From a virus (taxonomy: Duplodnaviria; Heunggongvirae; Uroviricota; Caudoviricetes): a stretch of 52,523 bases of DNA. The stretch lies in IMG/VR virus record IMGVR_UViG_2537561965_000009; one strand, given 5' to 3'. Position numbers and translations under genes: made by a program. This document shows positions 1,422 through 23,749 of the stretch, in pieces (the first letter of the stretch is position 1; every line of letters starts with the position of its first letter). The notes below the pieces were generated by a model that was not told where the DNA came from, did no database searches, and worked only from the letters and a program-made list of their open reading frames with translations.

Positions 1422-3893
1422 TTAAAAATCAGCCTGATTCGGGATCAGTTTTTGCCAGATAACTGAAACGTATTTTGCCTGGTAACGGGCGTCATCAAGT
1501 GCATTATGGCGCTCACCTTCGAATGGAATAGCCGTTCTGGCATCGAAGTCTATGGCTTTCCCCAGCTCAACGATTGTGCGTACATCGCGATCGTTGTAGT
1601 AACGCCATGGGCAGGGGATCCCCTGCCGTTCGTATGAACGGCGCAAAATCGTGTTGTCGAAGTTGGCTCCATTTCCCCAGACCTGAACAAAAAATTCGCC
1701 GGAGTTTTCGTCGATAAATTCCCGCAATTGCAGCAGTGCATCATCTAACGGGATTTCATCGGTCAGAATGGCAGATTGCGCCTCCCGTGATTGCTTAAGC
1801 CACCATTTAATGGTGCCACGATCAATGACTCCGCCAGCAGTATCCATATCGATGGTCTTACTAAATTCCGGCCCCATATCTCCGGTTTGCGGATCGAAAA
1901 ATATTGCACCTATTGAGATAAGCGGGGCATCGGGATTTTTTCCCATGGTTTCAAGGTTGATCATCATGTGGTGCCACATTCTGCTGGTGGATGTGATAAC
2001 GTGATGACCGTTCATCGCAATTAAGGGATCTGCCGTCTCGCCAGTTTCACTATCGCTGGCGTGATCCTGAGCGCTACCAGCATTCTCCTTGTGTGGATGT
2101 TCAGCGCCTTCCATTTCCTTCGGATCATTTTCCTGAACTTCAACCTGATTCTCTTCATCGAATGTTTCCTGGTATGTTGCGTCGCCCATTACCGCGCCAC
2201 AATCAGGGCAGTTGCCACCACCGCTTTGACCGCAGGCGGTGCAGACTTTTTCCGGTTCCTGTTGCGCTACTGGCTCAGGTTGTTTCGTTTCTGGCTCGTT
2301 TTGTAACGCATTTGGGCTGTTTTGTTCCGCTTTCTGGCCGTTCTGTTCCGTTTCTTGTTGGTTCTGATTCACTGAATCGCGGGTTTCAATCCCCTTCACC
2401 CATTTCGGATCATTCGGGTCGCTAATCCCTGCAACAAATTCACCACGTGATACAGCAAGCAACTTATTGGCGTCAGGCTGGCTGATATTGGCTGCCTGCA
2501 TAATTTTGTTTACTTCGTCAGCGGTAACTTTTACCGGCTCTGGTTGTGCGATCGTGTCAGATGCACCAGTATTTTGTTGTGAACCTGAGTATGTACTGTT
2601 TTTGCGGGCGAAATATTCTTCTTTCGTGATTTCAGTAGCCCCGGCAGCCAGCGCCTTATCCAGACCAGAAAGTTTGTTTGCGCGACCGTATTTTTCGCCA
2701 TCCTTGTCGGTGAAGAGGAAGTAGAACGGCCCTTCACGCTCTACAGATGGTTCGACTTCCACTTTGCATTCGGTTTTTTCGTTGTCCGGAATTGCCGTTT
2801 CCACTGCATCAGTTTCTGGTACTGGCGACGAGAGAGTATCAGTTGCGCTCTGATTTCTTCCTTCATCTTCAAACACGCCCTTTGTAGTCAGGTATTCAGT
2901 AATGTATTTGTTCAGTGCCACAGGGTCTTTGTGAATGTCGATCGGACGTTCACGGACAAGGCCAAAAATAGTCTGGCGGTCGTAGCGAAGGGCATCAGGC
3001 TGTTTGCGCATTGATGCCGAGATACGCTTCCAGTCTTCGCGGTCGTTGTCGATAACTTCATTTTTTGCCCAGCGATGGATGCTGCCGTCAATGTTTCCGG
3101 CATCCACATCACCAGGCCAGAGAGCGTAGGCCAGTTCGTCATCCAGTGTTTTCCATGTCTGCTTGTATTCGCGATGAATGGCAGCAATGACCGGGCTGAT
3201 TTTTCCTGTTGAATTTTCACTGTGCTGTTGATTGGTTCTGGCGCGGGCGAGATCAACAACAGACGTGTATTTTCCGGTTTCCTTGCGTTCACCTTCGCGA
3301 CGTTTTTTCCAGATGCGCATCTCTGCCTGAATTTCGGGCCATTTGGCACCAGGCTTACATTTATGCTTAACCCACCCGATGGCATGCAGCTTAAGCTCCG
3401 GATACATGGCGTTAACTTCTGGCATTTTCATCAACGCTTCAACGATATGTCCGTCGAATGTTGCCATGTCTTCCTGCAACAATTCCTGTGCGCTAATAAC
3501 CATATCAACGGTGATGTTTTCACATGTGTCGAACTTAACCATGACAGCGTTCTGTACTTCAGGGGACAGCTTGTCAAAATTGACGTTCATCGGATCGGAT
3601 TCTGGTTCGACCGGAATAAAGGAAGCGGATTCCTCATCCCAGCGGTTTTCCTGCATATATTCAGCATCCCAGGAATCGAGGGCAGGGCGGGGTATACCGG
3701 GTTTATCCTCGCAGACAAGAAATTTATAAGCGCAGTCCTGAGCAGCCGGATAATGTTCCAGGAATTGCCAGTGAAATTTTGCGCGGGCGCGACGTTCATC
3801 ACCGGCTTCAATGGCAGTGGCTACAGCGACGGCACCTTCTTCCTTTATTGCCTGTTCGTCCGGAATGGCGGCGCAAATAAAGACTTTACTCAT
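1422..3893 (-). CDS. large prophage exonuclease (often annotated exodeoxyribonuclease VIII-like); C-terminal DnaQ-like 3'-5' exonuclease motifs
   Basis: 823-aa ORF, GAGG Shine-Dalgarno before ATG 3893; C-terminal domain has Exo II-like GNGANFDNTIL and Exo III-like HNALDDARYQA motifs; central Cys4 cluster CTACGQSGGGNCPDCG; acidic linker. Confidence 0.6.
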   Translation of the reverse strand: MSKVFICAAIPDEQAIKEEGAVAVATAIEAGDERRARAKFHWQFLEHYPAAQDCAYKFLVCEDKPGIPRPALDSWDAEYMQENRWDEESASFIPVEPESDPMNVNFDKLSPEVQNAVMVKFDTCENITVDMVISAQELLQEDMATFDGHIVEALMKMPEVNAMYPELKLHAIGWVKHKCKPGAKWPEIQAEMRIWKKRREGERKETGKYTSVVDLARARTNQQHSENSTGKISPVIAAIHREYKQTWKTLDDELAYALWPGDVDAGNIDGSIHRWAKNEVIDNDREDWKRISASMRKQPDALRYDRQTIFGLVRERPIDIHKDPVALNKYITEYLTTKGVFEDEGRNQSATDTLSSPVPETDAVETAIPDNEKTECKVEVEPSVEREGPFYFLFTDKDGEKYGRANKLSGLDKALAAGATEITKEEYFARKNSTYSGSQQNTGASDTIAQPEPVKVTADEVNKIMQAANISQPDANKLLAVSRGEFVAGISDPNDPKWVKGIETRDSVNQNQQETEQNGQKAEQNSPNALQNEPETKQPEPVAQQEPEKVCTACGQSGGGNCPDCGAVMGDATYQETFDEENQVEVQENDPKEMEGAEHPHKENAGSAQDHASDSETGETADPLIAMNGHHVITSTSRMWHHMMINLETMGKNPDAPLISIGAIFFDPQTGDMGPEFSKTIDMDTAGGVIDRGTIKWWLKQSREAQSAILTDEIPLDDALLQLREFIDENSGEFFVQVWGNGANFDNTILRRSYERQGIPCPWRYYNDRDVRTIVELGKAIDFDARTAIPFEGERHNALDDARYQAKYVSVIWQKLIPNQADF

Positions 3894-4177: not shown

Positions 4178-4362
4178 TGCTGTTCTCCGATAATACCAAG
4201 TTCAAGAAGGGCAATTCTGGAAAGTATGGAATTATCATTGAGAAGATAAGGTTCATATTTTCTCATCTTAATGGCATCTTCCGTAAACTCCCGGTTACTG
4301 AGCAGAACACCAATATCAAAACAACCTTCAGACGTATTAACGTTTGGTAATAACGTTTCCAT
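4174..4362 (-). CDS. dicB: cell-division inhibitor DicB-like protein
   Basis: 62-aa product METLLPNVNTSEGCFDIGV... recognised as DicB-like from memory; GAGG SD before ATG 4362; lies downstream of the DicF sRNA sequence. Confidence 0.65.
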   Translation of the reverse strand: METLLPNVNTSEGCFDIGVLLSNREFTEDAIKMRKYEPYLLNDNSILSRIALLELGIIGEQQ

Positions 4363-4521
4363 TATCGCGTCCTCAACAATGAATTTTGTGATGCGGTGCC
4401 TGGTGCCTCCAGGTGACGTTAACCAGTTAACAATTAACGCCGGATACAGAGAATCCACCCATAACACTGTTTTTGGTTTTAACTGTTCCGCGTGCGCTCA
4501 GCCGCATTCACCACATCACAA

Positions 4522-4579
4522 AATTCACTTTAAAAAGGGCGGCAGAGCAGTCACGGAGTAAAACTGATACCGCCAAACG
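4522..4579 (-). ncRNA. dicF: DicF small regulatory RNA
   Basis: Minus-strand sequence UUUCUGGUGACGUUUGGCGGUAUCAGUUUUACUCCGUGACUGCUCUGCCGCCC followed by a U-run matches the DicF sRNA as I recall it; located between ydfC-like and dicB-like genes as in Qin. Confidence 0.6.
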
Positions 4580-4927
4580 TCACCAGAAAATTGATAACAG
4601 AGGGCGTTGCAGCGGAGTTGTCACTTAAGCGTATGGTCAACCTGACAACCCGGTGTCCTCAACGGAGGAAGGAATAACCCCGCCATACTTACCGCCGCGC
4701 CATTTCGCGGAGTGCCACAACCGGAAGCGCACGGTCGAACTAAATTTAACGACACCGTACAGAGAGACCAATTTCGCCGTGCGCTTTCGCTTTATGCCCT
4801 GACTTTTCAGGGACATATCCTTTCAGTAAACTGTCAGTGCCGGATGTTCACCCGTGTCCGGCGCACGCACTCCACCTGACCCGTGGAGAACTCCTTAATT
4901 ACCAACCTTAGCTTCGTTGGTTAGCTA

Positions 4928-5146
4928 TTAACGCGGGTATGTAACCATTCTGGCAATGCTTAATGCCGCTGCTTTTTCCAGCCTGGTGATATCCTGCTCC
5001 AGAGCGGACAGATTTTCAGCCTGCTTAGTCCTGGCTTCATTGGCCCATTTCAGATCCTGCGCTGCATTAATTTTCTGGCGCATCCACTCATAAAGTTCAT
5101 CATCGGTATAGTCTGGCGCGATGATGACGGGTTCTCGTTTCTGCAT
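4928..5146 (-). CDS. ydfC: YdfC-like small prophage protein
   Basis: 72-aa ORF, same size and operon position as ydfC in the Qin dicB operon. Confidence 0.5.
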   Translation of the reverse strand: MQKREPVIIAPDYTDDELYEWMRQKINAAQDLKWANEARTKQAENLSALEQDITRLEKAAALSIARMVTYPR

Positions 5147-5175
5147 ACTGATTCCTCGCGGTGCTGCTTCGCTTA

Positions 5176-5304
5176 TCAGCCGTTAGATTTTGCCGAGCTG
5201 GAAAGCGCCTGTTTAAACTCACTGAAGCTGAGAGCTTCTTCGCCTTCGGCAAGGCCTTCGAAGTATTCTTCGTAAGCCTTTTCCATGATTGTGTCGAAAT
5301 CCAT
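5176..5304 (-). CDS. ydfB: YdfB-like small acidic protein
   Basis: 42-aa ORF MDFDTIMEKAYEEYFEGLAEGEEALSFSEFKQALSSSAKSNG found by manual translation (below the 60-aa cutoff of the ORF track); size and position match ydfB. Confidence 0.45.
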   Translation of the reverse strand: MDFDTIMEKAYEEYFEGLAEGEEALSFSEFKQALSSSAKSNG

Positions 5305-5305
5305 A

Positions 5306-5461
5306 TCACTCACCTGAGTTTCTTTCCAGCCAGCGACGGGCACCATTTTCGGTTTTAAACGTTTTGCTTTTGGTATACGTCATTGCGGTGAACGTGCCGT
5401 CCTGGTTGGGGAACACGCCACATACCAGAGATTCGCTGTTGCCAAGATCGATAGTATCCAT
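5306..5461 (-). CDS. ydfA: YdfA-like (DUF1391-type) small protein
   Basis: 51-aa ORF MDTIDLGNSESLVCGVFPNQDGTFTAMTYTKSKTF... with GAGG SD; first gene of the leftward early operon. Confidence 0.5.
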   Translation of the reverse strand: MDTIDLGNSESLVCGVFPNQDGTFTAMTYTKSKTFKTENGARRWLERNSGE

Positions 5462-14704: not shown

Positions 14705-15070
14705 ATGACTGAACGCATAGAATTTGTTTTGCCTTACCCGCCAACGGTGAACACTTACTGGCGACGTCGTGGCAGCACATATTTTGTATCAAAAGCCGGT
14801 GAGCGTTATCGCCGTGATGTGGCGCTTATTGTTCGCCAGCAGCGGCTGAAATTAAACCTGTCCGGAAGGCTGGCGATAAAGATTATTGCAGAGCCACCGG
14901 ATAAACGTCGTCGTGACCTGGACAATATCCTGAAAGCACCACTGGATGCGCTGACGCATGCCGGACTTCTCATAGACGACGAGCAGTTTGATGAAATCAA
15001 TATTGTGCGCGGTCAGCGCGTTCCTGGGGGGCGGCTGGGCGTGAAGATTTACAAAATTGAGAGTGAGTGA
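14705..15070 (+). CDS. rusA: Holliday junction resolvase RusA
   Basis: 121-aa ORF MTERIEFVLPYPPTVNTYWRRRG... with the RusA signature; overlaps the upstream stop. Confidence 0.85.
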   Translation: MTERIEFVLPYPPTVNTYWRRRGSTYFVSKAGERYRRDVALIVRQQRLKLNLSGRLAIKIIAEPPDKRRRDLDNILKAPLDALTHAGLLIDDEQFDEINIVRGQRVPGGRLGVKIYKIESE

Positions 15071-15624
15071 TCGTAAATATGATATATCCGGAAATTACAG
15101 GCAAAAGCGGCGAGCATTTACGTCTAAAAACGCTGGAAGCCGTCTGGATCCAGGGGAAATTACGGATGTGGGGGCGTTGGTCGTACATAGGTGGTGGCAA
15201 ACCAGGAAATATGTTCAATCAGTTGCTGGCATCCAAAACACTTACAAAAACTGCGATCAATGAAGCTCTGCGCAGAATAAAAAAATCAGGGATTGATAAA
15301 ACTGAGCTGGAAGCGTTTTTGCGTGAGATGATCAACAGCAAGCAAAAGAGCGGGCTGGCTTATTGTACTGATGCCGAGGCGTTATGTATCGATCGGGTAA
15401 TTAGTAAAGTGTTGGCAGAGCATCCGGGATTGATTTGTATCCTCCGACAAAGATATGAAGGGCTGGGAATGAGCAAGCTGAAAATGGCAGAACAGTTAAA
15501 AAAGAATCACCCTGACTGGAGCCTGAAAACTTGTAGAAATCGCATTGATGTTTGGTTGGCGATGGCTGAAACCATGCTTTTCCTTCCAATGTGCGTGGCA
15601 CTTCGGTGCTTTTCTGATAACTGA
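15067..15624 (+). CDS. late-gene antiterminator Q-like protein
   Basis: 185-aa ORF (GTG 15067 or ATG 15079) directly after rusA and before the late/lysis region; contains an RMWGRWS motif reminiscent of Q-type antiterminators; the call is mainly positional. Confidence 0.5.
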   Translation: MIVNMIYPEITGKSGEHLRLKTLEAVWIQGKLRMWGRWSYIGGGKPGNMFNQLLASKTLTKTAINEALRRIKKSGIDKTELEAFLREMINSKQKSGLAYCTDAEALCIDRVISKVLAEHPGLICILRQRYEGLGMSKLKMAEQLKKNHPDWSLKTCRNRIDVWLAMAETMLFLPMCVALRCFSDN

Positions 15625-15713
15625 TGATAGAAGTGCATCAGCTATCAATCTTGTTGACGTTCATCAAGGTCTGGACAATACTTACGTTAAGTTCCAACAT
15701 ATGGAAGATAAGA

Positions 15714-16904
15714 ATGATATTTACACGATTGAGATTTATCAATTTGTACGCTTTTGAGGATGCAGAGCTTAACCTGTCCTATCCAAGGAAACCTGTAAAC
15801 ATGCCTCTTGATGGGGAGTTTTTGGCTGGACGGCCTAAATTTTACTATAAAAAAGTCTGTATCATAACGGGGGGAAATGCTTCAGGCAAGACGTCACTAG
15901 GGCGAATTCTTTGTGGAATTCAGGTGTTTCTAAGAACCAAAGAGTTGCGGAGTAATCTGCGAGTGAATAATAAAAATAATGATGCTTCGTTTGAAGTAGA
16001 CTTTGCTACGGAGGAACATTTTCATCATCGTTTGTATGTACGCTTTGCTACCAGTGAAGGCGGAGCGCACATAATCAAAGAAATTAAATATGGTTTTGTT
16101 CAAATAGCATTAAATGATTCTTGCTATAAAACCACAGAAAAACTGAATCAACTCTTTTCTGGAAGGGCCCCAGGAGATACAGAATATTTTTTTCAGGAAC
16201 TAGCTACTGATAGCGAACCAGTTGTATTGGAGTTTTTCAAGCAACTTAAGTTTTTTGGTGGATGGTACTATTTGTTGTCTGAAACTAAAGAAAGTACCAC
16301 TGCAATTTCAGGAATGAATAAAAATATTCTTGAAAGGATAATTCGCACTTTCGATTCAAGTATTATAGGAGTTACCGAGATGCTGGAGTCTGAAAGTGAC
16401 GGGGATGAAAATAAATCATCTGCGGTTTATCTGATTAAATTTAAAAACTCTGATTCTCTTGTCGTTACCAGTAAAGGTGAAATAATTAACTCAGACCGTC
16501 TTTCTCGAGGAACATACGAGGCAGTGACGGTAGCGCATTTTATAAGCGCTATTATCTCTGATTGTGAAAGACTAGGTAAGCAATCTCTAATACCATCAAT
16601 GACTTATTTTCTTGACGAGAAATTGGCTTATACACATTCAGAGTTAGAGCGTATGATTGTGGCGCTGATTATATCTAATTTGAAAGAAAATACTCAGTTT
16701 TTCTATACAACGCATAACATGGATATTTTTGAGTTGGATCTGCCTGTTCACTCGTTCATTTTTATTAAAAAAACGAAAGACTATTCGGAGTTTGTTGAAG
16801 CAAATTCAGTTGTTAAAAAAAATGACCGTAGCATGCGAAACGCTGTTGAGAGAGATGTCTTTGGTGTCTTACCTGACACATCATTAGTATCGGAGCTACT
16901 CTGA
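15714..16904 (+). CDS. ABC-type (AAA_21/SMC-like) ATPase, first gene of a candidate two-gene defence module
   Basis: 396 aa from ATG 15714; N-terminus MIFTRLRFINLYAFEDAELNL; Walker A ITGGNASGKTS; signature-like LSRGTYEAV; Walker B YFLDE; H-loop-like TTHN; strongly AT-rich codon usage unlike flanking phage genes; stop overlaps next start (TGATG). Confidence 0.7.
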   Translation: MIFTRLRFINLYAFEDAELNLSYPRKPVNMPLDGEFLAGRPKFYYKKVCIITGGNASGKTSLGRILCGIQVFLRTKELRSNLRVNNKNNDASFEVDFATEEHFHHRLYVRFATSEGGAHIIKEIKYGFVQIALNDSCYKTTEKLNQLFSGRAPGDTEYFFQELATDSEPVVLEFFKQLKFFGGWYYLLSETKESTTAISGMNKNILERIIRTFDSSIIGVTEMLESESDGDENKSSAVYLIKFKNSDSLVVTSKGEIINSDRLSRGTYEAVTVAHFISAIISDCERLGKQSLIPSMTYFLDEKLAYTHSELERMIVALIISNLKENTQFFYTTHNMDIFELDLPVHSFIFIKKTKDYSEFVEANSVVKKNDRSMRNAVERDVFGVLPDTSLVSELL

Positions 16905-17437
16905 TGGCGGGGTTGTCTAAAATAAGAATAATTTTTGTCGAAGGTGAAACAGAAAACTCTCTTTTTCAGAAGATGAAACAACAGAGAGTTATTGATGCCA
17001 AATCAATTGTAAAAAGAAACTTTTGGCAAGAGAGCATAAGAAATTATGCGATTACTATTCCGAAGGGAAGTGATATACTAATTGTCTTTGATAGTGATGA
17101 AGTGGAGCAATCTGCAAGATTCATTGAAAATGTAAAGTTCCTTAAAAACAGAGGGCATAAAGTTTATCTTTTGCAGCAGAAAAGAAATTTTGAGGAGGAG
17201 TTGGCCTGGTGTTGCGGAATTCCTGTAAAAAAACTAATTGCTGGGTTCTGTGCAAAAAAAACATCGGGTATAAATGATTTCAAGAGAGATTTTATTGCTT
17301 GTAACAATCAACTTTCAAAGTTACTGAAAATGGGCATGCAGGAAACTAAGTGGTTTACAAGAGATTTACATACTGTATTGGAGCCTGTTGCAAGTTTTAA
17401 GTCATCTTTTTCTAAACATTTCAGGTTAACAAGATGA
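16904..17437 (+). CDS. small TOPRIM-like protein (RloB/OLD/DUF4435-like), second gene of the candidate module
   Basis: 177-aa ORF; N-terminal IRIIFVEGETE and downstream ILIVFDSDEV give the Glu ... DxD arrangement of TOPRIM-type nuclease domains; translationally coupled to the ATPase gene. Confidence 0.6.
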   Translation: MAGLSKIRIIFVEGETENSLFQKMKQQRVIDAKSIVKRNFWQESIRNYAITIPKGSDILIVFDSDEVEQSARFIENVKFLKNRGHKVYLLQQKRNFEEELAWCCGIPVKKLIAGFCAKKTSGINDFKRDFIACNNQLSKLLKMGMQETKWFTRDLHTVLEPVASFKSSFSKHFRLTR

Positions 17438-17572
17438 TTTATTTTCTTTTTTGTTCAGTTGATTGTTTTTGTTTGTAAAATGTCTTGATTTTTTGCCAAT
17501 AAACTGTTTCAATCCAGCTACGCTTCGCAAAGCTATACCGCGAGGCGAATAGCAGACATGGACACCTGAAAG

Positions 17573-17597
17573 AACCCGCTTTATGCGGGTTTTTTTA
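17573..17597 (+). terminator. rho-independent terminator after the ATPase/TOPRIM operon
   Basis: AACCCGC-TTTAT-GCGGGTT hairpin followed by TTTTTT. Confidence 0.7.
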
Positions 17598-17719
17598 TGC
17601 CTGAAAAACGGCACAGAACATTAAACGCGCTGGTAGTTGTGAATACTGGTCTTTCAGCTTGCTGGCTTTTTCGACAAGAGGTATTGGTATGTCACGTTAA
17701 CCGGAAAAGGGAAAAAGGC

Positions 17720-17917
17720 ATGCTAAAACAGCAGGATATGACCGAAACCGCCAGAGTGGTGTTTAATGAATTAAGCGTCACCGAACCGGCGACCGTCGGG
17801 GAAATTGCGCAGAATACTTACCTTTCACGCGAACGCTGCCAGTTAATACTGACTCAGCTTGTTATGGCGGGTCTGGCAGATTATCAGTTCGGTTGTTACA
17901 GACGCCTTCCGCAGTGA
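17720..17917 (+). CDS. small hypothetical protein (possible HTH)
   Basis: 65-aa ORF MLKQQDMTETARVVFNELSVTEPATVGEIAQNTYLSRERCQLILTQLVMAGLADY... upstream of the methyltransferase. Confidence 0.4.
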   Translation: MLKQQDMTETARVVFNELSVTEPATVGEIAQNTYLSRERCQLILTQLVMAGLADYQFGCYRRLPQ

Positions 17918-18067
17918 AGGCTTTTTAATTTGTGGTAATGGGCGGCTGGTGGGTGTTAGCGGCACCTGCCAGCCATCTGCTCATGCGTTGGGGTCACAAG
18001 CAAACCTCAGGCCCATCTGCTTTGCGCAAAAGCGGTATGAGCCTATCAGAGAAGTGCTTATTGATCT

Positions 18068-19117
18068 ATGGCTAATACTGTAAAAATATCCAGTTGTGAG
18101 TTAATCAACGCTGATTGCCTGGAATTTATCCAGACCTTACCGGAAAACTCTGTCGATCTTATAGTCACAGACCCGCCATACTTTAAAGTGAAACCCGAGG
18201 GCTGGGATAACCAGTGGAAGGGCGACGATGATTACCTGAAGTGGCTGGACCAGTGTCTGGCGCAGTTCTGGCGGGTGCTGAAACCTGTCGGAAGTCTTTA
18301 CCTGTTCTGTGGTCATCGCCTGGCATCTGATATCGAAATCATGATGCGTGAACGCTTCAGTGTGCTGAACCATATTATCTGGGCGAAGCCGTCCGGACGC
18401 TGGAACGGATGCAACAAGGAAAGCCTGCGGGCGTATTTCCCCGCCACAGAGCGCATTCTGTTCGCGGAACATTATCAGGGGCCGTATCGTCCGAAAGATG
18501 CCGGGTATGCGGCGAAGGGCAGTGCACTGAAACAGCATGTGATGGCCCCGCTGATTTCTTACTTTCGTGATGCGCGCGCGGCCCTGGGGATAACGGCAAA
18601 ACAGATTGCAGATGCCACAGGAAAGAAAAACATGGTGTCGCACTGGTTCAGTGCCAGTCAGTGGCAGCTACCGAACGAAAGCGATTATCTGAAATTACAG
18701 TCGCTGTTTGCCCGGGTGGCAGAAGAGAAACATCAGCGCGGTGAACTGGAAAAGCCCCACCACCAGCTGGTGGATACGTATACGTCACTGAACCGGCAGT
18801 ATGTGGAGCTGCAGAGTGAATATAAGCATCTGCGGCGGTATTTTGGTGTGACGGCGCAGGTGCCGTACACGGATGTGTGGACACATAAACCGGTGCAGTT
18901 CTATCCCGGGAAACATCCGTGCGAAAAACCGGCAGAAATGCTGCAGCAGATAATCAGCGCAAGCAGTCGTCCGGGAGACCTGGTTGCAGATTTTTTTATG
19001 GGCTCAGGTTCAACGGTAAAAGCTGCACTGGCGCTCGGGCGTCGTGCGATTGGCGTTGAACTGGAGACCGGACGTTTTGAGCAGACAGTCAGGGAAGTTC
19101 AGGATTTAATCGTTTGA
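18068..19117 (+). CDS. DNA methyltransferase (N6-adenine/N4-cytosine, beta class), apparently orphan
   Basis: 349-aa ORF with motif IV DPPY near the N-terminus and motif I FFMGSGST near the C-terminus; no adjacent restriction endonuclease gene seen. Confidence 0.8.
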   Translation: MANTVKISSCELINADCLEFIQTLPENSVDLIVTDPPYFKVKPEGWDNQWKGDDDYLKWLDQCLAQFWRVLKPVGSLYLFCGHRLASDIEIMMRERFSVLNHIIWAKPSGRWNGCNKESLRAYFPATERILFAEHYQGPYRPKDAGYAAKGSALKQHVMAPLISYFRDARAALGITAKQIADATGKKNMVSHWFSASQWQLPNESDYLKLQSLFARVAEEKHQRGELEKPHHQLVDTYTSLNRQYVELQSEYKHLRRYFGVTAQVPYTDVWTHKPVQFYPGKHPCEKPAEMLQQIISASSRPGDLVADFFMGSGSTVKAALALGRRAIGVELETGRFEQTVREVQDLIV

Positions 19118-19166
19118 AACGGATGAGATTGCAGAATTAATTACGCACCATTATTATTCTGCTCCC

Positions 19167-19242
19167 GGCCCTTTAGCTCAGTGGTGAGAGCGAGCGACTC
19201 ATAATCGCCAGGTCGCTGGTTCAAATCCAGCAAGGGCCACCA
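19167..19242 (+). tRNA. ileZ: tRNA with CAU anticodon, ileX-like (tRNA-Ile2)
   Basis: 76-nt cloverleaf GGCCCTT...AAGGGCCACCA with anticodon loop CUCAUAA; closely resembles E. coli ileX as recalled; same position as ileZ in Stx-type phages. Confidence 0.8.
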
Positions 19243-19249
19243 TCACATA

Positions 19250-19326
19250 CCGCCATTAGCTCATCAGGAAAGAGCGCCAGCCTTCGAAGCTGGTTGCGCG
19301 GGGTTCAAGTCCCCGATGGCGGTCCA
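19250..19326 (+). tRNA. argN: tRNA-Arg (anticodon UCG)
   Basis: 77-nt cloverleaf with acceptor CCGCCAT/ATGGCGG, anticodon loop CUUCGAA, T-arm CGGGGTTCAAGTCCCCG and encoded CCA. Confidence 0.75.
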
Positions 19327-19339
19327 TTATCTGCATCAT

Positions 19340-19416
19340 GCGTTGTTAGCTCAGCCGGACAGAGCAATTGCCTTCTAAGCAATCGGTCACTGGTTCGAAT
19401 CCAGTACAACGCGCCA
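19340..19416 (+). tRNA. argO: tRNA-Arg (anticodon UCU)
   Basis: 77-nt cloverleaf GCGTTGT...ACAACGCGCCA with anticodon loop CUUCUAA. Confidence 0.8.
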
Positions 19417-19707
19417 CACTTATTTTCCCTGGCTCGCTTTTGTGGGCCTTTTTTTTAAATGTCTCACAATTTAGGCGGTTGACTGTTGTCTGGTTTGCGG
19501 GGAGTTTGTTAAAAGAAACTGGCATGGTGAATCCCCCTGTGCGGAGGGGCAATCAGCGAGTAGGTATATGGGATAATCGCGGATTCAGGTGCTGGTACTG
19601 AATTCACCGGGAGGCACCCGGCACCATGCAATGGCACATAGCGCCACTCTCCAGCCCCTCTCCGGAGGGGCTGTTTATATTGATTTTGTCAGATGTGAGT
19701 AAACTGC

Positions 19708-20043
19708 TTATGGACTTTGTTGTTTTAGCCCATAAGGACATATTTGCAGAGTGCAACGGTTATTAAAGCATTCATTCAATACGTTATCTGTATTTGTAGG
19801 GCATTCCTGGCTGTTTTTGATTAAATTCCAGAATGTTTTATTGAATGGTACTACGTTGTAAATGGTTACAGGTAGCACTTTGTTATTGAGCATGATGCCT
19901 GTGTGAGTCAGTGTAAATATACTTTCAGGAGGTAAGAAAGCATCCGATTGATACCAGATTATTAATTTTATTTTACTCCATATGACTGAAAAAGATATTC
20001 CGCATGATGGCTGGATAACTGTATCAATCACAATCCACTTCAT
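19708..20043 (-). CDS. orphan hypothetical protein at the stx-equivalent position
   Basis: 111-aa ORF in a very AT-rich segment between the tRNA genes and the esterase gene, opposite in orientation to the late operon; AAGGA-like SD; no family recognised. Confidence 0.35.
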
Positions 20044-20303
20044 TTAGTTTCCTTGTTTATGCCTTGCTGGTGATGTTCTGAAAAGTATAAATGATATTTT
20101 TGATTGTAAACCATAGAGCAGAATTATTTTTCTGATGTTGTTTATTGTTTATTTAAATGCAGGGTGGTTTATATCTCGTCTTGTAGTTTATCCATGCATA
20201 TCTGCTTGATGATGAGGTTTTTATTTAAGGTATGGTTTTGTGTTTTTTCTGTATTACATGTCAGGTATTTTAAAGAATCATTTTTCAGATGGTGGAAAGA
20301 ACC

Positions 20304-22157
20304 ATGGCATTTAAACACTATGATGTTGTCAGGGCGGCGTCGCCGTCAGATCTTGCGGAAAAGCTGACACATAAACTGAAAGAGGGCTGGCAGCCGTTTG
20401 GTAGTCCGGTGGCCATAACCCCTTATACCCTGATGCAGGCGATTGCAGCAGAAGGTGATGTGGTCGTCAGTGGTGCAACTGAGCCGGAGTGGTACTACGT
20501 CATCGTACTGGCCGGGCAATCCAATGCCATGGCTTACGGTGAAGGGCTTCCGCTTCCGGATTCTTACGATGCGCCCCACCCACGCATTAAGCAACTGGCC
20601 CGTCGCAACACAGTGACTCCCGGTGGTAAAGCATGCGCATTTAACGACATCATTCCGGCAGACCACTGCCTGCATGATGTTCAGGATATGAGCGCACTGA
20701 ATCATCCGAAGGCAGACCTGAGCAAAGGGCAGTACGGCTGTGTCGGCCAGGGCTTACATATTGCCAAAAAACTGCTTCCGTATATCCCGAATAACGCGGG
20801 GATCCTGCTGGTACCATGCTGTCGTGGTGGTTCGGCATTCACCCAGGGCGCGGAGGGGACATTCAGTGCGGACACGGGGGCCAGCCAGGATTCGGCACGC
20901 TGGGGTGTGGGTAAACCGTTATATCAGGACCTGATCGCACGCACCAAAGCGGCATTACAGAAGAACCCGAAAAATGTGTTGCTGGCGGTGTGCTGGATGC
21001 AGGGCGAATTTGACATGAGCGCTGCCACCTACGCACAGCAACCGGACCTGTTCACGGCCATGCTGAAGCAGTTCCGTACTGACCTTTCCGGATTTAACGC
21101 GCAGTGCCATGGCGGCAGTGCTGCAGTTGTACCGTGGATTTGTGGCGACACGACGTATTACTGGAAAAACACATACGGCACACAGTATGACTCCGTCTAC
21201 GGCGCATACAAAAACAGGGAGAGCGACAACGTTTTCTTTGTGCCGTTCATGACCGACGGTAACGGCAACAACACGCCCACCAACTTACCGGCAGAAGACC
21301 CGGATATTGCTGATGCAGGTTATTACGGCGCGCAATCCCGTAGTAATGGTAATTGGGTATCGTCAAACCGCCCGACACATTTCAGTTCATGGGCGCGCAG
21401 GAGCATTATTCCGGATCGTATGGCAACCGCTATTCTGAACGCAGCCGGGCGCACCTCAGCCTTCATCAGTGGTAAGGCACCGGAAATCAAACCCTCGCCC
21501 GGCGTCGACACGCCATCGGGGCCGTCTGAAGATGCATCCGTACGCACAATCTCCCTGTTGCCGACAGCCGGAGAGGCTGCTGCGCAGGGCTGGACCATTA
21601 AGGACGGCGGAATTCAGTTGTCGGGTGGTGTATTTAAGATCACCAAGCAGAGCAATAAAACTTGGTCCCTGATGCATCCGGTGGATGACGCAGTCTCCCT
21701 GCTGACACGGGGTGGCAGACTGAGCTGTAAGTTTCGACTGTCAGGCGCACTGACCAACAACCAGTTCGGTCTGGGAATTTATCTGTATACCGATGTAGCG
21801 TTACCTGACGTCGTGGCGATGACCGGGACTGGTAACCCGTTCCTGATGTCGTTCTTCACCCAGACCACAGACGGCAAACTGAATCTGATGCATCACAGGA
21901 AAGCAGGAAACACAAAGTTGGGCGAGTTCGGGAATTACAGTAACGACTGGCAGACGCTGGAGCTGGTGTTCACCGCCGGCAGTGCCACGGTTACTCCGAA
22001 ACTGAATGGAGTGGCTGGCCCGGCATTCCAGGTCATAAAAGACAGTCTGACACTGGGGCTGAATGCGCTGACGCTGACGGATATTACCAAAAATGCAGCG
22101 TATGGCGTTGAGATAGAAAGTCTGGTGCTGGAGATAAATGCACCAGCATCATCATAA
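20304..22157 (+). CDS. prophage sialate O-acetylesterase (NanS-p-like; DUF1737 N-terminus plus SGNH/SASA esterase domain)
   Basis: 617 aa from ATG 20304 (alternative ATG 20289); N-terminal MAFKHYDVVRAASPSDLAEKL...; esterase motif VLAGQSNAMAYGEG; C-terminal beta-rich probable carbohydrate-binding region; same position as nanS-p downstream of stx in Stx phages. Confidence 0.75.
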   Translation: MAFKHYDVVRAASPSDLAEKLTHKLKEGWQPFGSPVAITPYTLMQAIAAEGDVVVSGATEPEWYYVIVLAGQSNAMAYGEGLPLPDSYDAPHPRIKQLARRNTVTPGGKACAFNDIIPADHCLHDVQDMSALNHPKADLSKGQYGCVGQGLHIAKKLLPYIPNNAGILLVPCCRGGSAFTQGAEGTFSADTGASQDSARWGVGKPLYQDLIARTKAALQKNPKNVLLAVCWMQGEFDMSAATYAQQPDLFTAMLKQFRTDLSGFNAQCHGGSAAVVPWICGDTTYYWKNTYGTQYDSVYGAYKNRESDNVFFVPFMTDGNGNNTPTNLPAEDPDIADAGYYGAQSRSNGNWVSSNRPTHFSSWARRSIIPDRMATAILNAAGRTSAFISGKAPEIKPSPGVDTPSGPSEDASVRTISLLPTAGEAAAQGWTIKDGGIQLSGGVFKITKQSNKTWSLMHPVDDAVSLLTRGGRLSCKFRLSGALTNNQFGLGIYLYTDVALPDVVAMTGTGNPFLMSFFTQTTDGKLNLMHHRKAGNTKLGEFGNYSNDWQTLELVFTAGSATVTPKLNGVAGPAFQVIKDSLTLGLNALTLTDITKNAAYGVEIESLVLEINAPASS

Positions 22158-22307: not shown

Positions 22308-22523
22308 ATGTACCAGATGGAAAAAATCACAACAGGTGTGTCATACACCACGTCAGCGGTGGGAACGGGCTACTGGTTCCTGCAGTTGCTGGACAGGGTT
22401 TCCCCGTCTCAGTGGGCGGCAATAGGCGTGCTGGGGAGTCTGCTGTTTGGGCTGCTGACATATCTGACTAACCTGTATTTCAAAATCAGAGAGGACCGTC
22501 GTAAGGCTGCACGGGGAGAGTAA
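22308..22523 (+). CDS. S: class II holin (phage 21 S-type pinholin) with dual-start motif
   Basis: 71-aa product [28 protein letters not shown]...[15 protein letters not shown] closely resembles the S21 pinholin as recalled; two in-frame starts at 22308 and 22317. Confidence 0.8.
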
Positions 22524-22527
22524 TTCA

Positions 22528-22872
22528 ATGACTCAAAACTATGAACTGATTGTGAAAGGGATCCGCAATTTTGAGAATAAAGTTACGGTAACTTTAGCGT
22601 TACGGGACAAAAAACGCTTTGACGGTGAAATTTTTGACCTGGACATCTCGCTGGACCGTGTTGAAGGTGCCGCGCTGGAGTTTTATGAGGCAGCAGCCAG
22701 AAGGAGCATCAGACAGGTCTTCCTGGATGTTGCTGCCGGGTTATGTGAAGGGGATGAGCTGTCGCCGGAAAAGCGCCCCATAATTTTAGAGGCGCAGAAT
22801 GTGTGGATAACCTACAAAGGAAAGCTACCGGGAAGAATTACTGGTTCTCTGAAGACTCCGCCGAAATGGTAA
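22528..22872 (+). CDS. hypothetical protein inserted between holin and endolysin
   Basis: 114-aa ORF with ATG start and GGAGAG SD; its 3' end overlaps a convergent ORF. Confidence 0.45.
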   Translation: MTQNYELIVKGIRNFENKVTVTLALRDKKRFDGEIFDLDISLDRVEGAALEFYEAAARRSIRQVFLDVAAGLCEGDELSPEKRPIILEAQNVWITYKGKLPGRITGSLKTPPKW

Positions 22873-23110
22873 TTTCACCAGCATATTTTTCTTCCAGTAA
22901 TACCGCCAGCCACTTGAAAGAATTTTGTTGTTGCTGGGACCATTTGGGGTTGAGTGATTCAAGCTGGAGCGATGCCAGTGTTGGTTGCATTTGTTCCTTG
23001 GGAATTGAGAATGCCAGATATGAAAATGCGACAGTAAGGGCATTTACATCATCCCGAAGCCTGGAAATGCAGTCGAGCAACTCCTGTAGAGAAATGGTGC
23101 TATTGTCCAT
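22838..23110 (-). CDS. hypothetical protein, convergent and overlapping with 22528-22872
   Basis: 90 aa from ATG 23110 with GAGAGG SD; protein-like composition (MDNSTISLQELLDCISRLRDDVNALTVAF...). Confidence 0.4.
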   Translation of the reverse strand: MDNSTISLQELLDCISRLRDDVNALTVAFSYLAFSIPKEQMQPTLASLQLESLNPKWSQQQQNSFKWLAVLLEEKYAGEITISAESSENQ

Positions 23111-23215
23111 AAACAATCCTCTCTATTGTATTTAACTATTCCTTGCCTGATTCAACAGGCCGGGACAGATAAACATATCCAGGGTTCAGAAACCGATAAA
23201 TCCTGATAAATATCC

Positions 23216-23749
23216 ATGAACGCAAAAATCAGATACGGCCTGTCGGCTGCCGTTCTGGCACTGATTGCCGTCGGTGCGCCTGCGCCTGATATTCTCGACC
23301 AGTTTCTGGATGAAAAAGAAGGTAACCACACAACGGCATACCGCGATGGTTCCGGCATCTGGACCATCTGTCGGGGTGCCACGGTGGTGGATGGAAAACC
23401 CGTTTTTCCCGGTATGAAACTGTCGAAGGAAAAATGCGACCAGGTTAACGCCATTGAACGGGATAAGGCGCTGGCATGGGTGGAGCGCAATATTAAAGTG
23501 CCACTGACCGAACCACAGAAAGCGGGTATCGCGTCATTTTGTCCCTATAACATTGGCCCCGGTAAGTGTTTCCCGTCGACGTTTTATAAGCGGCTGAATG
23601 CCGGTGATCGTAAAGGTGCATGCGAGGCGATTCGCTGGTGGATAAAAGATGGTGGGCGCGATTGCCGCATACGTTCAAATAACTGCTATGGACAGGTTAT
23701 TCGTCGTGACCAGGAAAGCGCATTAGCCTGTTGGGGGATAGATCAGTGA
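23216..23749 (+). CDS. R: SAR endolysin (lysozyme, phage 21 R-type)
   Basis: 177-aa ORF; N-terminal signal-anchor-release segment [17 protein letters not shown]; catalytic E-x8-D-x5-T pattern [16 protein letters not shown]; C-terminal region resembles R21. Confidence 0.8.

Follow-up and report, generated by a model that had tools for sequence, protein, structure and literature searches.

The interval 17598-22157 of the window (the whole stretch of viral DNA that was analysed, 52,523 nucleotides, IMG/VR record IMGVR_UViG_2537561965_000009) carries a small ORF, a methylase gene, three tRNA genes, a small RNA gene of the STnc100 family, the anti-adaptor gene iraL on the minus strand and a predicted sialate O-acetylesterase gene. 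Together with their flanks, these features are:

15067-15624: Q-family gene (DUF1133/Phage_antitermQ; Pfam)
17567-17597, plus strand: tR'-like intrinsic terminator (hairpin GAAAGAACCCGC-UUUAU-GCGGGUUUUUUU, -18.2 kcal/mol)
17720-17917, plus strand: small hypothetical ORF with a weak TrmB-like HTH (RefSeq: 65 aa; if begun at the ATG at 17597: 106 aa)
18068-19117, plus strand: orphan phage methylase of the N6/N4 DNA methyltransferase type (Pfam N6_N4_Mtase, 2.7e-44; PADLOC MTase_II, 4.3e-166)
19167-19242, plus strand: tRNA with CAU anticodon, tRNA-Ile2 type (ARAGORN; Rfam tRNA, 72.5 bits)
19250-19326, plus strand: tRNA-Arg (UCG) (ARAGORN; Rfam)
19340-19416, plus strand: tRNA-Arg (UCU) (ARAGORN; Rfam)
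19431-19456, plus strand: intrinsic terminator at the end of the tRNA cluster (7-bp stem, hairpin 19431-19448, and T8)
19457-19460, no strand: empty stx2AB insertion point (blastn break points against Stx2a phage L004)
19493-19682, plus strand: STnc100-family prophage sRNA gene, 50% GC (Rfam RF02076)
19708-20043, minus strand: iraL, coding for a 111-aa IraM-family anti-adaptor of RssB (100% identical to CFT073 IraL, WP_000871291.1)
20044-20110, minus strand: iraL 5' UTR and promoter (TSS 20076; -10 TATACT at 20084-20089; -35 TTTACA at 20105-20110)
20289-22157, plus strand: predicted NanS-p-type sialate O-acetylesterase, 622 aa (Pfam DUF1737, SASA and DUF6645; RefSeq start 20304)
22230 or 22308 to 22523, plus strand: class II (P21 S-type) holin at the start of the lysis cassette (Pfam Phage_holin_2_1, PF04971, 2.3e-32; RefSeq)

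The whole locus is made up of known parts, descriptions being already available for iraL and the mechanism of its product as well as for the tRNAs, sRNA, esterase and holin; the gene set, iraL included, is present in the RefSeq annotation. In the RefSeq genome that is 100% identical over 14800-20400, the part corresponding to the window's first 50 kb is free of annotated toxin genes.

At the left edge, homology to Stx2a-phage late regions begins at 17585. The tR'-like terminator adjoins this edge of the interval and is kept in E2348/69; an isrK-like Rfam match at 17522-17595 is weak and sub-threshold. Although the original prediction had placed Q at the head of the gene order, the Q-family gene lies neither inside the interval nor adjacent to it but 2 kb upstream, with a 1.9-kb inserted cassette between Q and the late region. 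The small ORF (17597-17917) is not Q; it codes for a TrmB-like hypothetical protein whose match to Pfam TrmB (E=0.0075) is under the cutoff. In Stx2a phages, the same small ORF comes after Q.

The methylase and the three tRNAs, all on the plus strand (19167-19416), are found where they had been predicted. The methylase gene shows ~93% nucleotide identity with the "DNA methylase" of Stx2a phages, the CAU tRNA is named tRNA-Ile by RefSeq in matching loci, and the terminator of the tRNA cluster is kept in Stx2a phages, directly before the region upstream of stx2A. The predicted NanS-p-like esterase and S21-type holin can likewise be recognized, the former by its three Pfam domains and its homology to Stx-phage genes (88-90% nucleotide identity with yjhS/nanS-p of Stx1a and Stx2 phages), the latter by its match to the P21 holin family, pinholin behavior being putative. 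With DUF1737 at the N-terminus, SASA, and DUF6645 at the C-terminus, the predicted esterase is of the NanS-p type as this is defined. Further downstream, a lysozyme (23216-23749) has a hydrophobic N-terminus which, as the sequence reads, is compatible with a SAR endolysin.

The segment 19420-20300 had been described as extremely AT-rich over 870 bp. This holds for 19691-20288 only (32.8% GC, the mean of the window being 51%), whereas 19420-19690 has 50.6% GC and is not empty spacer, as it contains the intrinsic terminator and the conserved STnc100 gene, which had been missed. The RF02076 match is full-length (model positions 1-206; 132.4 bits vs. a gathering score of 47, E=1e-29) and the gene ends in a terminator at 19652-19673 (hairpin, -20.3 kcal/mol). 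STnc100 is a prophage-encoded, Hfq-associated sRNA for which a position 75 nt downstream of stx2B has been reported from Stx2 phages (PMC12370729; bioRxiv 10.64898/2026.05.13.724894); its start here maps ~75 nt past stx2B in L004, i.e., to the same position, the difference being that no stx lies upstream in the window. The EHEC prophage anti-sRNAs AsxR and AgvB, both represented in Rfam, were considered as the sRNA next to the slot and rejected, neither being matched at E≤1.

The 111-aa ORF on the minus strand is located as predicted, at 19708-20043. It had been regarded as an orphan of unknown family, and indeed no Pfam or PADLOC match can be found for it; however, a homology search places it in the IraM family, with 162 bits against a cutoff of 121 for the NCBIfam model PRK09919 (NF007393, "anti-adapter protein IraM") over residues 1-110 of 111, and the protein is identical to the characterized IraL of CFT073 (c1429; Hryckowian et al., 2014, PMC4045071). 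The flanking DNA is 98% identical (98.2% over 19452-20523, which comprises STnc100, iraL and its promoter) and the coding region differs by a single nucleotide, at 19729, so that the published criterion for iraL, at least 95% identity over the whole coding region (PMC4045071), places the gene within it. Of 5426 complete E. coli genomes, 1432 contain at least 80% of 19690-20300; identity is ≥95% in nearly all of them, and these matches are annotated as anti-adapter protein IraM. K-12 IraM (YcgW; PDB 8TWD, PMC10844676) belongs to the same family and is 62% identical to IraL over 107 aa without gaps, IraL having a 4-aa C-terminal extension; the 8TWD structure entry is matched at E=9e-32. IraM contacts RssB through 14 residues (clusters I-III of 8TWD, as listed in PMC10844676), of which 10 are identical in IraL, the others being T13S, L75I, I64V, and H63N. 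Since the two proteins reportedly differ in how they bind RssB (PMC4045071), the argument from a conserved interface is only partial.

In CFT073, IraL was shown to bind RssB and to lengthen the half-life of RpoS by two-hybrid, pull-down, and half-life assays, stabilizing RpoS in log phase (PMC4045071), and iraL mRNA was detected by RNA-seq (PMC12890032). Without the gene, the RpoS half-life in CFT073 drops from about 5 min to about 2.5 min. As against what would have refuted the original prediction, the ORF is conserved and, in CFT073, transcribed (PMC4045071, PMC12890032), and the locus aligns to Stx-phage late regions. The mRNA start determined by 5'-RACE (PMC4045071) matches 31 of 32 nucleotides at 20045-20076 on the minus strand, which sets the 5' end 33 nt upstream of the ATG. 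The -10 and -35 hexamers, assigned by reading the sequence from this published start, are identical to those of CFT073; a simple promoter scan did not detect the iraL promoter because the spacer is 15 nt long. Three SNPs distinguish the region from CFT073, at 20104 (next to the -35), 20077 (position -1), and 20046 (3 nt before the ATG), and E2348/69 has all three. Given the match to the CFT073 data, iraL is predicted to have its own promoter, from which a transcript would be made in the lysogen. The promoter of K-12 iraM was considered as a shared promoter and rejected, since the nucleotide match does not extend beyond the coding region and the sequences upstream of it are, by eye, unlike. According to published work, IraM is induced by Mg2+ starvation and its gene is reportedly under PhoP control, while IraL acts in log phase. 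A TGTTTA-N5-TATTTA motif seen by eye near 20147-20163, in a segment of 29% GC, is given no weight.

Considering these features together, it is very probable, the two readings being judged jointly, that 17598-22157 is where the late operon, with the layout of Stx phages, begins in a stx-negative lambdoid prophage that lies at ompW and appears complete, and that iraL is a moron, a gene of lysogenic conversion that has a sigma-70 promoter of its own. By binding the adaptor RssB, IraL would block the delivery of RpoS to ClpXP in the lysogen, and RpoS would rise in exponential growth. On induction, RNA polymerase modified by Q and coming from near 17500 would pass tR' and the terminators of the tRNA cluster and of STnc100, cross iraL in antisense, and continue into the esterase and lysis genes, so that iraL may be expressed in the lysogen specifically and suppressed during lytic growth.

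It could be argued that iraL is a silent passenger here and has no effect on RpoS, either through silencing of the H-NS type, in keeping with the strong AT-richness of the segment (29-33% GC), or through the three SNPs in its promoter and UTR, as JJ1886 has promoter-variant iraL copies whose activity is not established (PMC4045071). However, the coding sequence and both hexamers are intact, the same promoter allele is carried by E2348/69, and the gene is kept at ≥95% identity in ~1400 genomes, which makes such silence improbable. An even smaller probability is given to the view that the minus-strand unit is mainly a regulatory RNA, the iraL transcript acting antisense to STnc100 or to the late transcript and damping leaky read-through into the lysis genes. 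The two genes are indeed convergent and only 25 nt apart, and their shared hairpin has no U tract on the minus strand, so that the iraL transcript would enter the STnc100 gene; yet protein function was demonstrated directly for the identical protein (PMC4045071), and the IraM-family ORF is kept as a protein across three clades (59-70% identity), with the interface residues retained.

The region 17585-19457, as well as the esterase and holin, align to Stx2a- and Stx1a-phage late regions at ~89-94% identity, the collinearity with Stx1a phages covering the esterase and holin. The order small ORF, methylase, tRNA-Ile2/Arg/Arg, esterase, P21-type holin is common to Stx phages. Of what defines an Stx-converting phage, the late-region order is present while stxA and stxB are absent, which bears out the predicted toxin-negative relative of Stx phages. 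By blastn, window position 19457 corresponds to L004 position 3361, ~50 bp before stx2A, and 19460 to 4694, ~42 bp after stx2B; stx2AB in Stx2a phages is therefore a ~1.33 kb insertion exactly between these two positions, at which the alignment leaves no sequence for stxA or stxB in the window. In CFT073 and E2348/69, an unrelated insert (642 and ~545 bp, respectively) with a DUF3927 ORF is found at 19428/19452, and in CFT073 it fills the stx slot. The CFT073 prophage resembles the present one in that iraL likewise lies in a lambdoid late region downstream of tRNA-Ile/Arg/Arg. It differs in its site (potB instead of ompW), in an IS200 that replaces the methylase region, and in an esterase truncated to a DUF1737 fragment, whereas methylase and esterase are intact here.

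Judged from sequence, the toxin slot (19457/19460) is separate from the iraL slot (between STnc100 and the esterase), the two being neighboring cargo sites. Stx2c phages (2851, 1717) and some Stx2a phages (Stx2_EH2246, WGPS types) present tRNA-Ile/Arg/Arg, the STnc100 region, an IraM-family gene on the minus strand, NanS-p and holin as here, and Stx2_EH2246 also shares the upstream methylase. These phages differ from the window in their Q genes, in having stx2AB between the tRNA terminator and STnc100, and in their IraM-family protein, which, with 107 aa (e.g., WP_001303568.1) and 70% identity to IraL, is of another clade. In Stx2c and several Stx2a phages, the second slot is thus filled by an IraM-family gene while stx2AB is found in the same phage; this co-occurrence, in the same order, indicates independent neighboring cargo modules. 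The original prediction, in which the 111-aa gene replaces stxAB at the toxin's own site, agrees with the position of both between the tRNAs and the esterase at coarse resolution, but its strict form is already refuted and the remainder is most improbable, since the stx2AB break points lie upstream of STnc100, iraL begins 250 bp further right, Stx2 phages account for 41 of the 46 phage records in which an IraM-family gene occurs, and in the inspected Stx2a and Stx2c loci this gene is found after stx2B and before the esterase. The main use of the present analysis is this correction, i.e., that a toxin slot and an anti-adaptor slot are to be told apart, with the STnc100 gene between them. The slots can be filled independently: both empty or otherwise filled, iraL only, stx only, or stx with an IraM-like gene.

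A literature search for a connection of iraM or iraL with Stx phages or with the late regions of prophages returned nothing specific, and neither a link to a lysogeny-specific moron nor one between the 107-aa clade and RpoS levels in STEC was found in the searchable literature. It is conceivable, if on balance doubtful, that the following hold jointly: IraM-family genes would be a recurrent moron, always antisense between STnc100 and nanS-p; RpoS stabilization would be lysogeny-specific and switched off by Q-dependent late transcription; and the 107-aa clade, which travels with stx2 in Stx2c and some Stx2a phages (236 of 5426 genomes), would be a further functional anti-adaptor. If so, this clade could explain high log-phase RpoS in STEC without iraL. 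For the RpoS and STEC fields, a modest lead may be found here, namely that Stx2c-type phages would transfer, together with the toxin, an unstudied candidate stabilizer of RpoS.

The window covers a lambdoid prophage adjoining ompW, with an integrase gene at 2709-3839 and tail-fibre genes extending to about 49.8 kb. Of 5426 complete E. coli genomes, only 7 contain at least 80% of its segment 14800-20400; four match this segment at 100%, and the window coordinates agree with the RefSeq annotation of one of the four. The methylase, tRNAs, 111-aa ORF, esterase and holin (a domain match of the P21 type) listed in the original prediction are all present in the interval 17598-22157. From the Q gene to the esterase, the following features can be distinguished:

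15067-15624, Q-family late antiterminator gene (DUF1133/Phage_antitermQ)
15624/15714-16904, AbiLi-like AAA ATPase (PADLOC AbiLi, 9.6e-26)
16904-17437, 177-aa partner protein (weak AbiLii match, 1.7e-3)
17567-17597, tR'-like terminator
from 17597, small TrmB-like hypothetical protein, also found after Q in Stx2a phages
18068-19117, N6/N4 DNA methyltransferase
19167-19416, + strand, three tRNAs with anticodons CAU, UCG and UCU, the first being tRNA-Ile in RefSeq
19431-19448 plus T8, intrinsic terminator ending the tRNA cluster
19493-19682, STnc100 prophage sRNA gene with its own terminator (full-length family match, 132 bits vs gathering score 47)
19708-20043, - strand, 111-aa ORF
20289-22157, esterase of 622 aa, DUF1737-SASA-DUF6645

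The 111-aa ORF had been taken for an orphan, a claim that does not hold. While a Pfam search gives no match, the protein scores 162 bits against the NCBIfam IraM model (PRK09919; cutoff 121), is 62% identical to K-12 IraM without gaps, matches the crystallised IraM fragment (PDB 8TWD), and is 100% identical to the "anti-adapter protein IraM" (WP_000871291.1) of the CFT073 potB prophage. IraL was described in CFT073 as a paralogue sharing 58.9% identity with IraM, and its mRNA start was determined by 5'-RACE as ACATCACCAGCAAGGCATAAACAAGGAAACCA (PMC4045071). This sequence is found once in the window (31/32, 20045-20076, - strand), immediately 5' of the ORF's ATG, and the TTTACA and TATACT hexamers 5' of the start site are the same as in CFT073, to which 19452-20523 is 98.2% identical without gaps. 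Given the protein identity, the start match and the unchanged promoter hexamers, the gene is iraL. The 611-bp iraL segment can be found at at least 80% coverage in 1432 of the 5426 genomes, where it invariably carries the annotation anti-adapter protein IraM.

Nor is 19420-20300 uniformly AT-rich, as had been described: 19420-19690 has 50.6% GC, and only 19691-20288 is low (32.8%). The GC-normal portion harbors the tRNA terminator and the overlooked STnc100 gene, which in Stx2 phage begins about 75 nt past stx2B, in agreement with its published position (PMC12370729). The partial "hypothetical protein" pseudogene called by RefSeq at 19512-19637 (- strand), inside STnc100, is probably an annotation artefact of this structured RNA region.

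Regarding the toxin slot, positions were set by blastn break points against Stx2a phages, CFT073 and E2348/69. The Stx2a phages (LC567837, LC567818) are collinear over 17585-19457, to about 50 bp before stx2A, and resume at 19460, about 42 bp past stx2B; judging from these break points, stx2AB is cleanly inserted, as a segment of about 1.33 kb, directly past the tRNA terminator. In CFT073 and E2348/69 the breaks fall at 19428 and 19452, around inserts of 642 bp (L007, the CFT073 potB prophage, 22568-23209) and about 545 bp (within L010, E2348/69, 4346-4972), each with a DUF3927 ORF. The site just 3' of the third tRNA (19428-19452) is a cargo hot spot, holding stx2AB in Stx2 phages, a DUF3927 mini-ORF insert in CFT073 and E2348/69, and nothing in the window. 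The ORF was therefore misplaced in the toxin slot: the stx2AB point (19457/19460) is vacant, and iraL is located beyond STnc100, before the esterase. In Stx2_EH2246 and an O157:H7 Stx2c prophage, stx2AB coexists with an IraM-family gene in the same arrangement. The toxin and anti-adaptor slots are thus two adjacent, independently filled cargo sites. In PPyecE_EH1910, the methylase-to-esterase gap instead holds genes for a "plasmid stabilization protein", a transcriptional regulator and a TerB-like protein. By tblastn, 41 of 46 phage records with any IraM-family gene are Stx2c, Stx2a or Stx2 phages.

The IraM family includes a third clade, with a protein of 107 aa that shares 70% identity with IraL and 65% with IraM; it is encoded at 4950-5273 of the LC567837 locus and 5003-5326 of an O157:H7 locus (Z1815). 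In Stx2c phages (2851, 1717) and several Stx2a phages its gene lies between stx2B and nanS-p; it occurs in 236 of the 5426 genomes, many being O157:H7 or STEC strains. STEC strains with high log-phase RpoS have been reported without iraL, in a survey scoring only iraL or iraM matches, all at least 95% identical (PMC4045071); with about 75% nucleotide identity to iraL, the third clade would have gone unscored. No paper connecting iraM with stx2c was found in the literature search. The DUF1398 gene ycgX sits after iraM in K-12 (icd-iraM-ycgX-bluR), and the CFT073 prophage has ydfO, of the same family, a few kb past iraL, which suggests that the K-12 iraM locus derives by decay from a lambdoid late region.

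Since each component of the interval has been described and annotated, the finding is already explained. The searchable literature holds no statement placing iraL in a lambdoid late region beside the stx site and no mention of the Stx2c-phage IraM-like gene; these are modest contextual additions, not a novel system type.

IraL binds RssB and extends the half-life of RpoS about twofold in log phase; from the -10/-35 sequence, sigma-70 dependence was proposed for its promoter (PMC4045071). Its mRNA is detected by RNA-seq in CFT073, increasing upon shift to 37 °C (PMC12890032), and IraL levels are increased in a fur mutant (PMC7157518). Among the RssB-contacting residues of IraM (crystal structure, PMC10844676), 10 of 14 are identical in IraL, the others being T13S, L75I, I64V and H63N. 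With gene and mapped promoter intact in the window, IraL would inhibit RssB and stabilise RpoS, effects demonstrated in other work for a protein of identical sequence. iraL converges with STnc100 and runs antisense to the late operon. Upon induction, Q-modified polymerase would pass tR', the tRNA terminator and the STnc100 terminator, then traverse iraL antisense toward nanS-p and the lysis genes; because of this read-through, IraL production would be lysogen-specific. The STnc100 hairpin has no U tract behind it when read on the minus strand, so the iraL transcript may run on, in antisense, into STnc100.

Q had been placed beside the interval and in fact lies upstream of it, the gap comprising a 1.9-kb AT-rich cassette (15570-17483, 36% GC) and then the tR'-like terminator. 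A strong hairpin within 17522-17597 (-18.2 kcal/mol), flanked by an A-tract and, on the opposite side, a U-tract, directly precedes the late-region ORFs and is kept in E2348/69. It resembles a tR' ending the short leader RNA made from the late promoter; Rfam gives only a sub-threshold isrK-like match (21.6 bits vs 50). The cassette consists of the two Abi-like genes, between the DUF1133-type Q and this terminator at the late-region start. E2348/69 has 128 bp in its place; the cassette alters the 3' end of Q, shares start/stop overlaps with adjacent genes, and is a candidate abortive-infection/defence moron.
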